The notes beneath the pieces are model-generated. The model was not told the origin of the DNA and ran no database searches. It saw only the letters and a list, made by a program, of their open reading frames with translations. From Nanopusillaceae archaeon (lineage in GTDB: Archaea > Nanobdellota > Nanobdellia > Nanobdellales > Nanobdellaceae): a stretch of 6,327 bases of DNA. The position numbers and the translations under genes were made by a program. Each line of letters opens with the position of its first letter. Positions within the stretch are counted from its first letter, which is position 1. The stretch covers positions 1-6,327 of the forward strand of contig JAWBIX010000023.1 in the NCBI GenBank assembly GCA_038833255.1, in the 5' to 3' direction. Shown here in pieces: positions 149 to 3,048 of the stretch.

Positions 149-441
149 TTCTCTTGAAAATTATAAATTCCCCGCAAGGAAATATAGTTATTTTATGTGA
201 TGAAGATCTATATGGTAAAGAATTTATTAATGGAGATAAAATCTTAAAAATAACTTCATTTTATAAAGGAGAGTCTGTAAAGGGCGTTGATAAGAGTATT
301 TTAGAAAAAGCAAATATAATAAATGCTATAGGAAAAAAATCTATAGAAATTTTAATAAAAAATGAAATAATTTCTAAAGACGAATTAAAAGAAATAAAAT
401 ATATAAAGGATATTCCATATATCTTTATAGTAAAAGAATGA
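145..441 (+). CDS. Conserved archaeal protein of unknown function, DUF424-like
   Basis: 98-aa ORF with a GTG start at 145..147 that overlaps the aIF-2 beta stop (aaGTGA). Motifs LCDEDLYGKEF, SFYKGE, ANIINAIGKKSIE and IKDIPY match my recollection of the roughly 100-aa DUF424 family, which is commonly adjacent to aIF-2 beta in archaea. Confidence 0.72.
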   Translation: MILLKIINSPQGNIVILCDEDLYGKEFINGDKILKITSFYKGESVKGVDKSILEKANIINAIGKKSIEILIKNEIISKDELKEIKYIKDIPYIFIVKE

Positions 442-959
442 CTTACAAAAGATTTTGTGCTAATTGTGGAAAAGAAGCTGAAAAATTAATAGAAAATTTA
501 TGCGAATCCTGTTATAATAATTTAAAAAATATTAAAAAGCCGATAAGGAAAATAAAAGTTTGTAAATATTGTAAAAAAATTTTTTATAAAAATAAAATAA
601 TAGAAAAAGAAAAATTGAATGGATTTGAAATAAAAGAATATTATTTTATATGTGAAAACTGTAAAAAAATGCATAGTAAAAGATATAACACTATTATACA
701 AATAAGAAATTTATCTGAAAAAGAAATTACAATGTTTTTAGAATTTTTTAATAAAGAAAATATTGTAATAAAAAAGTATGATAAATTAAATGATACTTCT
801 TTAGATTTATATGTTTTTTTAGAAAGAAAAATGTTAAAAAAGCTTGTAAAATTTATAAAAAAGGGGAATTTTAATATGAAAATAACTAGAAAGTTAAAAG
901 CATATGATGCTCAACATAGTAAAAAAATATATACCTTAACTTTACTTATACAAAAATAA
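438..959 (+). CDS. NMD3-like zinc-binding protein (short form: N-terminal NMD3 domain only)
   Basis: 173-aa ORF whose ATG overlaps the DUF424 stop (ATGA at 438..441). It has four CxxC pairs (CANC, CESC, CKYC, CENC). The last is followed by KRYNTIIQIRN, resembling the NMD3 signature CxxC-x(5-7)-Y-x-A-I/V-I/L-Q-L/V-R. Confidence 0.62.
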   Translation: MTYKRFCANCGKEAEKLIENLCESCYNNLKNIKKPIRKIKVCKYCKKIFYKNKIIEKEKLNGFEIKEYYFICENCKKMHSKRYNTIIQIRNLSEKEITMFLEFFNKENIVIKKYDKLNDTSLDLYVFLERKMLKKLVKFIKKGNFNMKITRKLKAYDAQHSKKIYTLTLLIQK

Positions 960-990
960 GCTAAATTTTTTAACCCTTTCGATATATAAT

Positions 991-1131
991 ATGGCTATGA
1001 AAGTTTACTTTGCTAAGATAGACGAAGAAGAAGAAGAAGAGGATTGGGAAGAGGAGTGGGAAGAGGAAGAATGGGGCGATGAAGAGTGGGAAGAGGATTG
1101 GGAGGAAGAGTGGGAAGAGGAAGAGGAATAA
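991..1131 (+). CDS. Candidate microprotein, 46 aa, hyper-acidic Trp/Glu repeat (MAMKVYFAKIDEEEEEEDWEEEWEEEEWGDEEWEEDWEEEWEEEEE)
   Basis: Hand translation gives ATG 991..993 and TAA 1129..1131, below the ORF-track length cutoff. It occupies the only large unassigned gap (960..1178); the other spacers are 51 nt or less. It is on the same strand as its flanking genes. An A/T-rich TATA-like stretch (aaatttttta, 963..972) lies about 20-28 nt upstream of the ATG, compatible with a leaderless mRNA. A hairpin plus T-run follows the stop. G+C is well above the surroundings, driven by TGG and GAG codons. Confidence 0.5.
   Translation: MAMKVYFAKIDEEEEEEDWEEEWEEEEWGDEEWEEDWEEEWEEEEE
1021..1128 (+). repeat. 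Purine-rich imperfect tandem repeat with 12/15-nt period (units like gAGTGGGAAGAGGA / gATTGGGAAGAGGA)
   Basis: gagtgggaagagga occurs exactly at 1054..1067, 1084..1097 and 1108..1121. Variants are gattgggaagagga at 1042..1055, gattgggaggaaga at 1096..1109 and a degenerate unit near 1069. Unit spacing is 12, 15, 15, 12, 12 nt. The + strand is almost entirely G/A. Six GGG(G) tracts lie at 1046, 1058, 1073, 1088, 1100 and 1112. Confidence 0.85.
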
Positions 1132-1163
1132 AATAAATAGGAATTTCCTCTTTCTTTTTTTAT
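1115..1163 (+). terminator. Possible stem-loop plus oligo-T terminator after the acidic micro-ORF
   Basis: aagaggaagaggaa (1115..1128) pairs with ttcctctttctttt (1145..1158), giving 14 bp including two G-U wobbles and a 16-nt loop. The 3' arm runs into a T7 run at 1155..1161. Oligo-T is the usual archaeal termination signal. Only 17 nt remain before the aIF-1A ATG, so read-through or co-transcription is equally possible. Confidence 0.35.
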
Positions 1164-1178
1164 GTTATTAAAACATTA

Positions 1179-1469
1179 ATGGGTGAAGAGGAAAAAATTT
1201 TAATACCTAAAGGAAAACAGGTTATTGGAATCATTGAAGAAGTTGTTGGATGGGCACATGCTAGAGTTAGATGTTTTGATGGAAAAGTAAGAATTTGTAG
1301 AGTCCCAAAAAAACTATCTGGAAGGGTTTGGTTAGTTAAAGGAGCATATGTTTTAGTAGATCCTTGGGAAATAGAAGGAGATAGAAAAGGAGATATTTTA
1401 TATACTTATTCTTCTACTGAAATTGAATGGTTAAAGAGAAAAGGATATATTAAAATTGAAGAAATATAA
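1179..1469 (+). CDS. eif1a: Translation initiation factor aIF-1A (S1/OB fold)
   Basis: 96-aa ORF. GIIEEVVGWAHARVRCFDGKVRICRVPKKLSGRVWLVKGAYVLVDPWE...GDILYTYSSTEIEWLKRKGYI matches the aIF-1A/eIF1A core (vRC.DG..R...IpGK...RiWi..GD.VLV.PW......K.DI...Y....v.wL...GYL). Confidence 0.9.
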   Translation: MGEEEKILIPKGKQVIGIIEEVVGWAHARVRCFDGKVRICRVPKKLSGRVWLVKGAYVLVDPWEIEGDRKGDILYTYSSTEIEWLKRKGYIKIEEI

Positions 1470-1478
1470 TAAAATTAT

Positions 1479-1551
1479 GGGCCCGTAGTCTAGCCAGGCA
1501 GGATGTTGGGCTCCAGACCCAATGACCGGGGTTCAAATCCCCGCGGGCCCA
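1479..1551 (+). tRNA. trnW: tRNA-Trp (anticodon CCA), intron-less, CCA end not encoded
   Basis: Hand-folded cloverleaf. The acceptor stem GGGCCCG/CGGGCCC (1479..1485 with 1544..1550) is followed by discriminator A1551. U8, A14, G18G19 and A21 are present. The D stem is GUCU/GGAU. The anticodon stem is UUGGG/CCCAA with loop CU-CCA-GA (anticodon 1513..1515). The variable loop is 4 nt. The T arm is CGGGG-UUCAAAU-CCCCG. About two thirds of the bases are G+C by hand count, against a very AT-rich background. Confidence 0.93.
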
Positions 1552-1573
1552 TAAAAAACTTGTAAAAATTAAT

Positions 1574-2246: not shown

Positions 2247-2792
2247 ATGAATCAAAAAAAGAAAGAGAATTTTGCAATAATATTAGATTTTCTTCCTCTT
2301 GGAGATCAATCTAAAGGAATCTCAGAGCCTACTGCTTATGCTATAGGTGTAGATTATTTTACTCTTCTTTTATTAATAACAAAACCTGGTATAAAGGTAG
2401 AGGTTTTTGAAGAAGTATATATAGGGGAAGGAAAGAGGGATAAAATAAAATCTGTATTAAAAAAAATATCTGTAAATGATTTATCTCTACTTGCTAAAGA
2501 AAATTTAGAAAAAGCTATAATAAAAATAATAGAAAAAAAGGAATCAAAATTTGTCGAATTTTTTAATAAAGCTGGTCCATTAAATTTAAAAGTTCATTCT
2601 TTAGAGCTAATTCCTGGAATTGGAAAAATAATATTAAATAGAATTTTAGAAGAAAGAGAAAAAGAGCCATTTAAATCTTTTTCAGATATAGAAAATAGAA
2701 TAAAAGGACTTAAAAATATAAAGTTATTATTATGTAGAAGAATTATTGATGAATTATATGGAAATGAAAAAATAAAGCTATTTACAATTTAA
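2247..2792 (+). CDS. DUF655-family protein with OB-like N-terminus and helix-hairpin-helix motif; function unknown
   Basis: 181-aa ORF, 16 nt downstream of rpoF. Matching segments are AIILDFLPLG, AYAIGVDYFTLLLL..KPG, VYIGEGKRDKI, FVEFFNKAGPLNLKVHSLELIPGIGKIILNRILEEREKEPFKSFSDIENRI and KLFT. These match the DUF655 family (YvLDyLP.G; FtLLEv.pk; vYIG.g.RdKI; FV.FFN.A.PiT.rlH.LELLPGIGKK....IleER...PF.SFeDI..RV). It is classically linked to rpoF. Confidence 0.85.
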   Translation: MNQKKKENFAIILDFLPLGDQSKGISEPTAYAIGVDYFTLLLLITKPGIKVEVFEEVYIGEGKRDKIKSVLKKISVNDLSLLAKENLEKAIIKIIEKKESKFVEFFNKAGPLNLKVHSLELIPGIGKIILNRILEEREKEPFKSFSDIENRIKGLKNIKLLLCRRIIDELYGNEKIKLFTI

Positions 2793-3048
2793 AGTTATTT
2801 AATTTTGCTATTAATTTAATTAATTTTTCTTTTTTTGTAAGATCTATTCCATTTTCTTCTTTTATTTTTATAATCAATAGTTTTTTAATAAATTTTTTTC
2901 TTTTTCTAATATCTTTTGGTATATTTCTAAGATGGGATTTATTTAAATGTTTTGTATACTTTTTATTGTTTGGAAATATATGCCCACATAATGGACAAAT
3001 ATAAACTTCTCTATTACATCTATTAATTTTTTTTATGCTACCTATCAT
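2782..3048 (-). CDS. Small basic protein (88 aa) with a single classical C2H2 zinc finger
   Basis: ICPLCGHIFPNNKKYTKHLNKSH fits C-x2-C-x3-F-x5-(aromatic/hydrophobic)-x2-H-x4-H. The rest is Lys/Ile-rich (KRKKFIKKLLIIKIKEE...KKEKLIKLIAKL), probably helical and basic. It lies 33 nt downstream of, and co-directional with, fibrillarin. Its 3' end overlaps the convergent DUF655 gene by 11 nt. Confidence 0.65.
   Translation of the reverse strand: MIGSIKKINRCNREVYICPLCGHIFPNNKKYTKHLNKSHLRNIPKDIRKRKKFIKKLLIIKIKEENGIDLTKKEKLIKLIAKLNNFKL

Follow-up and report, generated by a model that had tools for sequence, protein, structure and literature searches.

A conserved, apparently undescribed acidic Trp-rich microprotein gene next to aIF1A in Nanobdellota

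DSS1/Sem1 is a small (about 70 amino acids), free-standing, disordered and highly acidic protein, in which a few conserved Trp residues bind pockets of its partners, including OB (oligonucleotide/oligosaccharide-binding) folds. The C-terminal tail of eIF1A is also acidic, disordered and aromatic-containing, has a hydrophobic end and docks on eIF5B. In eIF3j, the Trp of an acidic motif inserts into a Lys-flanked pocket of the RNA recognition motif (RRM) of eIF3b, and eIF3j interacts genetically with eIF1A (PMC2824034); on the 40S subunit, eIF3j touches both eIF1A and ABCE1 (PMC7780240). The C-terminus of the archaeal ribosomal stalk binds ABCE1 (PMC6125642). Here we analyzed a stretch of 6,327 nucleotides from a Nanopusillaceae archaeon (contig JAWBIX010000023.1 of GCA_038833255.1, forward strand; hereafter the window), in which a micro open reading frame (micro-ORF) lies between an NMD3-like gene and the aIF1A gene. 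This micro-ORF is a genuine, conserved and syntenic coding gene under purifying selection, and it is apparently undescribed. Its product appears to belong to the same kind of acidic-aromatic disordered binding modules, here in a free-standing, Trp-periodic and archaeal form.

Close relatives were located through the NMD3-like protein, and the two lineages thus found, L009 (86% identity) and L010 (71% identity), both retain the micro-ORF in the same slot. Between the window lineage (L003) and L009, the micro-ORF differs at 12 nucleotides, 11 of the changes being synonymous and one non-synonymous (synonymous rate dS ~1.7, non-synonymous rate dN 0.008, omega ~0.005), a pattern with P = 4.7e-5 under a neutral model that allows transitions only. 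An earlier note on this DNA had claimed a selected coding sequence rather than drift, and the substitution pattern bears this out. The note had argued from a local G+C island, which is real (45% GC in the micro-ORF vs 26% in the window); because the island follows from the amino-acid composition, however, it carries no weight as a sign of selection, and our case rests on dN/dS. Although dS exceeds 1.5, L009 and L010 have the same core, DWEEEWEEEEWG[DN]EEWEE. L010 shows an in-frame difference of 10 codons (EEKKKKEEEE) with the core unchanged, and GAA and GAG interchange freely among orthologues, whose insertions and deletions are all multiples of three, a check that the note had called for. Eight near-identical assemblies carry the micro-ORF, two of which differ by one GAA codon in the run (GAA)5; as the one-codon difference between the close strains L005 and L007 illustrates, this run is the only part of the micro-ORF with microsatellite-like behaviour. 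At about 1520-1790 of L011, a run of N and a duplicated micro-ORF end and aIF1A start look like a scaffolding artefact caused by the repeat. The features of the micro-ORF and its borders in the window are as follows.

963..973, forward strand: TATA-like promoter box AAATTTTTTAA, with TTTTTTAA at 966-973 (-31..-24 from ATG 997)
991..1131, forward strand: micro-ORF, ATG 991 to TAA 1131, 46 codons (44 from ATG 997), product MAMKVYFAKIDEEEEEEDWEEEWEEEEWGDEEWEEDWEEEWEEEEE
1024..1038, forward strand: (GAA)5 run, detected by TRF with period 3
1045..1113, forward strand: Trp/Glu repeat core from W19 to W41, detected by TRF with imperfect 12/15/24/30-nucleotide periodicity
1072..1080, forward strand: W28-G29-D30 hinge with the sole Gly, WG[DN] being kept in L007, L009 and L010
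1129..1136, forward strand: stop codon inside the conserved TAAAATAA, invariant in L003, L009 and L010
1144..1161, forward strand: pyrimidine tract ending in T7 (1155-1161), a T-run directly ahead of the aIF1A ATG being common to all relatives

After a 10-residue head, the window protein consists of 25 Glu, 4 Asp, 6 Trp and one Gly; its net charge is about -27, and Asp and Glu make up 66% of it. The Trp residues are at positions 19, 23, 28, 33, 37 and 41. A recount of the length, of these residues and of the 4-5-5-4-4 Trp spacing agreed with the earlier figures throughout. So did the count of Glu codons, as GAG accounts for 10 of the 25 in the micro-ORF (15 GAA) vs 29 of the 172 in the other genes of the window (143 GAA; Fisher p = 0.013), where GAA dominates. 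Trp makes up 13% of the micro-ORF vs 0.52% of the rest of the window's genes, and the DNA motif for W-E-E-[DE]-W, present in three copies, did not occur in 200 dinucleotide-preserving shuffles of the window. The proposed alignment of the Trp residues along one helix face has weak support: in the window protein, five of the six fall within an 80-degree arc, but in the relative with 71% NMD3 identity they are scattered (helical resultant 0.56 vs 0.29), and a single-helix face is thus not conserved. The ORF had also been taken as unlisted, which proved incorrect: the window sequence is identical to part of contig JAWAML010000004.1 of GCA_038895895.1, and a 44-amino-acid gene at 997..1131 is already among the public gene calls of that assembly.

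This shorter version is probably the true one. The TATA-like box upstream of the micro-ORF is kept in L009 and L010, and its -31..-24 geometry, common to all relatives, fits ATG 997 and not ATG 991, which makes ATG 997 the likelier start and 44 amino acids the probable product. From general archaeal promoter spacing, the box at 963..973 is probably the promoter of a leaderless mRNA that starts at ATG 997. The pyrimidine tract at 1144..1161 is likely an oligo-T terminator, able to pair with the GA-rich 3' end of the micro-ORF. The +2 frame of the GA-rich repeat, at 1079-1171 on the forward strand, holds a 30-amino-acid Lys/Arg-rich ORF (MKSGKRIGRKSGKRKRN...), which we regard as a by-product of the repeat because the synonymous substitutions of the Glu/Trp frame would alter its product.

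Conservation of the slot extends far beyond the close relatives. Distant relatives were traced from aIF1A homologues, and further loci came from a metagenome scan with an NMD3 alignment, in which the slot was visible in 28 of 31 loci and held a micro-ORF in all 28. Altogether, 34 Nanobdellota loci have the order NMD3-like, micro-ORF, aIF1A, tRNA-Trp, all with an acidic W/F ORF in the slot, down to ~31% NMD3 identity and 64% aIF1A identity; the expectation of the earlier note that relatives would keep an acidic Trp-rich ORF between nmd3 and eif1a was thus confirmed. In the cultured Nanobdella aerobiophila (aIF1A 64% identical), the slot encodes MDWDALEKKEMRYRMKADEDEDDEDLELDEGEFGDWEDEEW, and the gene is retained in a genome of ~0.67 Mb, family members being found in genomes of ~0.6-0.7 Mb, and two other Nanopusillaceae lineages have similar slot ORFs ending in EEW. 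We defined the family as peptides of 39-70 amino acids with at least 43% Asp plus Glu and 3-8 Trp spaced 3-6 residues apart, a description that covers the window protein. It comprises 30 distinct peptides with net charges from -12 to -40, all length differences being in frame. Across 129 kb of family loci, no ORF other than the one in the slot has at least 40% Asp/Glu together with at least two Trp. An TTATAAAA-type TATA box at -31..-24 from the micro-ORF ATG and a T6-7 run between the micro-ORF and aIF1A are present in every locus, and the spacer to aIF1A measures 29-49 nucleotides in all relatives and contains no Shine-Dalgarno sequence.

The family shares a head, MDWEDLK[RKN][RK]xxEL[RK]M, and behind it an acidic body that varies in length and has an aromatic residue (W, F or Y) every 3-6 positions. 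MDW starts 27 of the 30 distinct peptides, whereas the window protein starts with MAMKVYFAKID; in the window lineage, the head is MAMKVY[FV]AK in place of the basic amphipathic motif MDW[ED][DE]LK+. The MxxKVYF head singled out earlier is therefore kept in the three closest lineages but not in the wider family, which has MDWEDLK+, and the divergent head of the window protein is a lineage-specific replacement. The other end varies as well. The C-terminus is ...EEW in 25 of the 28 metagenome loci, the remaining L221, L223 and L228 ending in W plus two or three acidic residues; in the window lineage, 2-5 acidic residues come after the last Trp, so that neither the window protein, with five Glu after its last Trp (WEEEEE), nor L010 (WDEE) has a C-terminal EEW. 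The window protein is thus an atypical, somewhat divergent member of the family.

The genes that flank the slot in the window are the following.

438..959, forward strand: NMD3-like gene, 173 amino acids, shortened, the upstream neighbour that defines the slot (Pfam NMD3, E = 2e-14)
1179..1469, forward strand: aIF1A gene, next downstream, a candidate for co-regulation or for encoding the partner (Pfam eIF-1a, E = 1.4e-16)
1478..1552, forward strand: tRNA-Trp (CCA), found by ARAGORN and Rfam, 8 nucleotides after aIF1A and 347 nucleotides downstream of the micro-ORF

The naming of both protein-coding neighbours in the earlier note was correct; the tRNA-Trp gene went unmentioned there. In every micro-ORF locus whose contig is long enough, tRNA-Trp(CCA) directly follows aIF1A (L009, 6041-6115; L010, 6066-6140; L132, 4331-4404; L134, 4439-4511; L136, 4308-4378 on the minus strand; also L203-L229), and it is inverted in one lineage (L136/L202). 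At L138 (aIF1A 54%), a flavin reductase replaces NMD3, the spacer is only 62 nucleotides long, and both the micro-ORF and the tRNA-Trp are lacking. The tRNA-Trp and the most Trp-rich ORF of the family loci, which occur together and are jointly missing at L138, are therefore linked.

Databases and structure prediction added little. A phmmer search with the window peptide against 5.8 billion clusters returned nothing at E up to 10 among 888 word-sharing candidates, and that against 1.84 billion representatives gave no matches; these negatives are uninformative because the composition correction of HMMER removes all signal, even for self-like sequences. Exact look-up of 10 micro-peptides in a collection of 15 billion proteins found none of them. 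When 16 peptides of the family and the class were compared with Pfam, NCBIfam and PDB at E up to 10, nothing above noise emerged, and neither the window protein nor 15 relatives matched Pfam DSS1 at the same cutoff. The literature searched contained no description of such a microprotein, and papers beyond it may hold one; the earlier note had not recognized a described archaeal family in the ORF, which is consistent with all of these results. The single-sequence AlphaFold2 model of the peptide has helices at 12-25 and 31-45, broken at WGD, at low confidence (mean predicted local distance difference test score, 67.6). A precursor of a ribosomally synthesized and post-translationally modified peptide or of a cofactor was dropped as an explanation, there being no maturase-type neighbours.

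We also searched one genome per species with a degenerate DNA pattern for acidic W-x3-W-x3-5-W, which matched at least 118 loci. Among the matches listed, to which all counts over 23 loci below refer, are at least 23 archaeal look-alike ORFs of 22-71 amino acids, almost purely composed of Glu/Asp and Trp (Phe in Nitrososphaeria), from Thermoprotei, Desulfurococcales, Thermofilum, Bathyarchaeia, Nitrososphaeria, Geothermarchaeota, Thermococci/Methanobacteriota, Thermoplasmatota and Micrarchaeota. Their class architecture, Glu/Asp with Trp or Phe every 4-5 residues, is also that of the window protein. The look-alikes have TATA-like boxes, GGAGGTG-type Shine-Dalgarno sequences 5-10 nucleotides before the ATG and T-runs after the stop. 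Two Bathyarchaeia copies (L073 and L119) differ at 12 nucleotides, none of them non-synonymous, and two Nitrososphaeria copies show six synonymous changes and two D/E changes. The stop codon directly follows W or F in 21 of the 23 (P = 4e-13 at an aromatic frequency of 0.20), the exceptions being L048 and L063; apart from these 23, the window protein does not end in this way either.

The look-alikes have a recurring neighbourhood in the TACK archaea, consisting of a phosphoribosyltransferase, Cgi121, THUMP, the micro-ORF, a TFS/Rpb9-like gene and ABCE1. ABCE1 (Fer4_RLI plus two ABC domains) adjoins 9 of the 23 ORFs (L014, L028, L032, L047, L060, L061, L073, L080 and L119), a TFS/Rpb9-like Zn-ribbon gene lies between or beside the ORF and ABCE1 in four, and Cgi121 is nearby in seven (L014, L032, L047, L076, L101, L111 and L124). 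In Bathyarchaeia, the micro-ORF lies ~60-150 nucleotides upstream of ABCE1 on the same strand; in Desulfurococcales, it is divergent from TFS-ABCE1; and 6-7 of the 23 face the next gene in convergent orientation. Outside Nanobdellota, a link of these ORFs with tRNA genes was rejected, since only one tRNA-Glu and one tRNA-Met were found near the 23 loci. Synteny differs between the two sets, with ABCE1/TFS/Cgi121 around the TACK look-alikes vs NMD3/aIF1A in Nanobdellota, and phmmer with 14 proteins of the window cluster detected no neighbours shared with the TACK loci. The one specific feature that joins both sets is the C-terminal Trp of most Nanobdellota members. A viral origin was rejected, as most of the 62 pattern matches in IMG/VR belong to long proteins or do not show the class architecture. 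Five IMG/VR contigs (L173, L180, L181, L185 and L195, one of them a metagenome-assembled genome (MAG) of a giant virus) contain the identical open stretch RPRITDLEEEWEEEWEEEWEEEWEEEEQEGKKGVKKQKQ, which, unlike the archaeal class, has neither a Met start nor a terminal Trp. Longer open frames of 66-142 amino acids with similar long E/D/W repeats, for example ...EDWEEEEDWEEEWDEDWDEEEWEEEEEW..., occur in L084, L087 and L091, which are MAGs of thermophilic bacteria (WOR-3 and Caldipriscus).

By analogy, the earlier note had suggested that the product mimics a nucleic acid or serves as an acidic/aromatic adaptor, in either case for a basic partner, which remains plausible. Going further, we see an even chance that the micro-ORF product is a trans-acting, disordered, polyanionic and Trp-anchored microprotein that docks on a component of translation; its disorder, its action in trans and the identity of its partner are what we infer here. 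In such a scheme, a separately promoted gene, with a probably leaderless mRNA starting at ATG 997, would yield a polyanion of 44-46 residues with a Trp every 4-5 residues, which would act in trans as a free-standing acidic tail. Its Glu and Asp residues would steer it onto a basic nucleic-acid-binding or factor-binding surface, and the Trp side chains, together with the C-terminal Trp in most family members, would plug hydrophobic pockets. The probable target would be the translation apparatus at the recycling-to-initiation step of the small subunit, namely aIF1A, ABCE1, aIF5B or the 30S subunit; the N-terminal acidic motif of eIF3j, the eIF1A tail and the C-terminus of the stalk P-proteins are known examples of acidic-aromatic tails with this mode of action. 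The neighbourhoods, with NMD3/aIF1A in the window and ABCE1 in TACK archaea, implicate the translation apparatus, and the look-alike ORFs that adjoin ABCE1 point to the recycling/initiation interface and make eIF3j the sharper analogy. Specific binding is favoured over a generic polyanion by the conserved Trp and Gly positions, the N-terminal motif, the terminal aromatic residue and retention in genomes of ~0.6-0.7 Mb, and a purely cis-acting role is disfavoured by the look-alikes convergent with the next gene. A bolder version, which we consider rather unlikely, would make the microprotein a widespread archaeal translation cofactor that works with aIF1A and ABCE1 on the small subunit in the hand-over from recycling to initiation; it would then be the functional equivalent, and perhaps the evolutionary ancestor, of either the acidic motif of eIF3j or the C-terminal tail of eIF1A in eukaryotes.

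Several observations weigh against docking in trans on a translation component. The window protein itself has neither the MDWEDLK head nor the C-terminal Trp that mark the family, and the position of its gene 47 nucleotides upstream of aIF1A, followed by tRNA-Trp, also fits a cis-acting role. The contexts in Thermococci/Methanobacteriota are heterogeneous (Cdc48, Trm5, Lhr and MoeA). Kinship of the Nanobdellota family with the E/W ORFs of TACK and Euryarchaeota is not demonstrable, because composition defeats HMMER, and the two sets may be convergent. The AlphaFold2 model being of low confidence, the claim that the window protein is probably disordered on its own rests on its composition.

The main rival explanation of the locus is that the micro-ORF works in cis as a leader ORF, in which translation itself rather than the peptide matters and stalling or ribosome destabilization tunes read-through or re-initiation downstream; we consider this unlikely. 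Its targets could be aIF1A and tRNA-Trp here and ABCE1 or TFS in TACK archaea, and it might sense charged tRNA-Trp, how stable ribosomes are or the capacity for recycling. Its many Trp codons and hyperacidic nascent chain would make it hard to translate. Runs of consecutive acidic residues at the N-terminus cause intrinsic ribosome destabilization in bacteria and eukaryotes, which recycling factors and ABC-F ATPases handle (PMC9718836, PMC12673854, PMC11162784). The arrangement also suits a leader, with six TGG among 46 codons located 347 nucleotides upstream of tRNA-Trp, a triad of micro-ORF, aIF1A and tRNA-Trp that is invariant in Nanobdellota while L138 lacks both micro-ORF and tRNA-Trp, a 29-49-nucleotide spacer with a conserved T-run and no Shine-Dalgarno sequence, and the Bathyarchaeia ORFs at ~60-150 nucleotides upstream of ABCE1 on the same strand. 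A conserved residue right before the stop codon is typical of regulatory arrest peptides, and the terminal W or F in 21 of the 23 look-alikes resembles it. A 19-bp hairpin is predicted between the 3' end of the ORF and the T-tract, but it is no better than pairing with other sequence windows of the locus (median fraction 0.30; <0.05 in 4 of 28 loci). Moreover, the 6-7 convergent look-alikes have nothing downstream to regulate, the Desulfurococcales ORFs are divergent from TFS-ABCE1, downstream genes vary by lineage (TIM, MoeA and Trm5), and tRNA-Trp is adjacent only in Nanobdellota. The conservation of exact Trp and Gly positions and of the N-terminal MDWEDLKRR exceeds what a codon-run sensor needs, and, to our knowledge, attenuation by leader peptides is not established in archaea. 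The peptide might, in contrast, matter only for its charge, as a generic polyanion without a specific partner in thermophiles, serving as a charged, heat-stable anti-aggregation shield or as a buffer or carrier of polyamines, Mg2+ or K+ through Trp/Glu cation-pi cages. The plastic length of the acidic body (peptides of 39-70 amino acids), the span of net charge from -12 to -40 and the heterogeneous contexts in Euryarchaeota agree with this, and nearly all carriers are thermophilic lineages or hot-spring or vent metagenomes (Thermoprotei, Desulfurococcales, Thermococcus, hot-spring Bathyarchaeia and Nitrososphaeria, and Nanobdellota), a bias that may come from which loci are among the matches listed. 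Since a shield would need neither fixed Trp positions nor a WG[DN] hinge, an N-terminal motif or a C-terminal aromatic residue, and since the ORF keeps a fixed slot among translation genes in the ~0.67 Mb Nanobdella genome, we regard this as quite improbable.

A nucleic-acid mimic of the DSS1/Sem1 type, which would bind OB folds of replication and repair (MCM, or the RPA_C-like or OB-fold protein) or other DNA-binding proteins, seems highly improbable. DSS1 is comparable in size, acidity, Trp content and OB-fold binding, aIF1A is itself an OB fold (Pfam eIF-1a), and the Nanobdellota cluster runs from MCM and an RPA_C-like/OB-fold protein through aIF2beta, DUF424 and NMD3 to the ORF and aIF1A; MCM, however, is three genes away whereas aIF1A is directly adjacent, the TACK look-alikes adjoin ABCE1, TFS and Cgi121 and not replication genes, and Pfam DSS1 was not matched even at E = 10. 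We see a very slim chance that the peptide is an adaptor or tag for maturation of the Fe-S clusters of ABCE1, recognized by its C-terminal aromatic residue in the manner of the tripeptide [LIM]-[DES]-[WF] and of Lto1 for Rli1/ABCE1. ABCE1 adjoins 9 of the 23 look-alikes, ends of the ...E-E-W or ...E-E-F type occur in 21 of the 23 and in 25 of the 28 Nanobdellota metagenome loci, and published work describes both the targeting motif of cytosolic iron-sulfur assembly (CIA) and a Trp at the C-terminus of Lto1 (PMC10245660, PMC4523923). Against this, the window protein ends in WEEEEE and a relative in WDEE, a free C-terminal Trp thus being dispensable here, position -2 is Glu rather than Leu, Ile or Met in nearly all members, and no ABCE1 lies in the neighbourhood of the window's micro-ORF. 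Archaea, as far as we know, also lack the Cia1/Met18 targeting complex. Lastly, that the ORF is non-functional, as a neutral GA-rich repeat open by accident or a purine-rich non-coding RNA element, is scarcely credible. It does show imperfect 3-, 12-, 15-, 24- and 30-nucleotide periodicity in TRF and one-codon GAA copy-number differences among close strains, but the differences among orthologues are nearly all at third positions and synonymous, and frame, start and stop are kept in 34 loci over a large divergence. The Rfam scan found no family that matches the micro-ORF, its RNA fold z-score is -1.3, and the pattern was never seen in shuffled sequence. The neutral repeat is refuted by the substitution pattern, and with differences synonymous and both frame and core kept, repeat and RNA element are ruled out.

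The remaining genes of the window concern the setting of the micro-ORF. The gene order is the end of aIF2beta, DUF424, NMD3-like, micro-ORF and aIF1A. L21e is encoded on the minus strand, as are the genes from 2782 onward, so that the cluster, described earlier as co-directional, is not fully so. The NMD3-like protein (438-959) is strongly shortened, its best Pfam stretch covering positions 1-53 of the 243-position NMD3 model. In the window clade, aIF1A (window 1179-1469; orthologues L132, L134 and L136) ends in acidic plus hydrophobic residues (...KIEEI, ...TEEEF and ...VEEEL), which recalls, in miniature, the DIDDI end of eukaryotic eIF1A. An 88-amino-acid basic protein, in which a lone C2H2-type zinc finger scores below the Pfam threshold, is encoded at 2782-3048 on the minus strand between DUF655 and fibrillarin, and its position is conserved in all close relatives. 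Between ArgRS and MCM, ARAGORN found a 90-nucleotide tRNA-like gene (L009, 1501-1590; L010, 1500-1591; both minus strand) with a two-base anticodon left undetermined, which may be an intron-containing or otherwise unusual nanoarchaeal tRNA.

If the microprotein acts in trans, it would be a new component of the archaeal translation cycle, whose parts list is regarded as complete. Its place would be the ABCE1/aIF1A step, for which eukaryotes have eIF3j, and it would offer a simple model of the way in which acidic-aromatic tails guide factors over the small subunit. If the micro-ORF is instead a cis-acting leader, it would be the first control by a leader peptide or by ribosome destabilization described in archaea, tied to a tRNA gene and a recycling factor. 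Either way, a conserved family in genomes of ~0.6 Mb and in several archaeal phyla is invisible to standard hidden Markov model pipelines. E/W microproteins would have gone unnoticed because gene callers drop such short ORFs and composition filters erase them from homology searches, and the family is a concrete example of the risk of composition masking and length cut-offs. Being defined by position and simple sequence rules, it is directly testable with synthetic peptides.

The described systems resemble the micro-ORF to different degrees. Like TrpL-type and MgtL-type leaders, it is short, favours the codons of a single amino acid and lies upstream of the tRNA gene for that amino acid, and hyperacidic nascent chains, as in MgtL-type acidic leaders, destabilize ribosomes (PMC9718836). 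It differs from bacterial leaders in the strong conservation of the peptide sequence itself and, as far as the pairing at 28 loci shows, seems to have no convincing alternative hairpins, and whereas a same-strand downstream gene is always present in Nanobdellota, 6-7 of the 23 look-alikes are convergent. We know of no leader mechanism of this type in archaea. With Lto1 and the CIA tripeptide, the class shares an acidic-then-Trp/Phe C-terminus as a possible recognition signal; Lto1 serves ABCE1/Rli1 (PMC4523923, PMC10245660), and class members end in E-E-W or E-E-F and often adjoin ABCE1. The tripeptide is [LIM]-[DES]-[WF]-COOH (PMC10245660), however, whereas position -2 is Glu in nearly all class members, the window protein ends in E-E-E and only L079 among the matches listed ends in L-E-W, and the recognizing complex is eukaryotic. 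The tail of the stalk proteins aP1 and P1-P2 combines an acidic linker with a short hydrophobic/aromatic C-terminal anchor and recruits aEF1A, aEF2, aIF5B and ABCE1 (PMC6125642), but it belongs to a ribosomal protein and has a conserved Leu/Phe-Gly motif at its end, whereas the micro-ORF product has no stalk N-terminal domain and uses periodic Trp.

DSS1/Sem1 is eukaryotic, has other spacing and motifs, has no C-terminal Trp signature and gives no Pfam match to the micro-ORF, and its partners (the proteasome lid, BRCA2 and TREX-2) are absent from archaea. The eIF1A tail is nearer in setting, since the micro-ORF is encoded right beside an aIF1A that has no such long tail. A simple gene split does not account for it, because the micro-ORF is a separate gene upstream, not downstream, of aIF1A; its aromatic residue is Trp where the eIF1A tail has Phe, and the aIF1A of the clade already ends in ...IEEI or ...EEEF. 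eIF3j/Hcr1, for its part, is a protein of ~260 amino acids with a helical dimerization bundle and a basic C-terminal tail (PMC7780240), whereas the window protein has 46 amino acids and no Pfam match; archaea have no eIF3b RRM, and no sequence homology is detectable. The archaeal peptides are free-standing, 22-70 amino acids long and have many Trp where eIF3j has one. What likens the two, as a resemblance only, is an acidic stretch with a Trp anchor, six Trp lying in an acidic context in the micro-ORF product, and the site of action: eIF3j acts beside eIF1A and ABCE1, and it is the genes of aIF1A and ABCE1 that flank the archaeal micro-ORFs.

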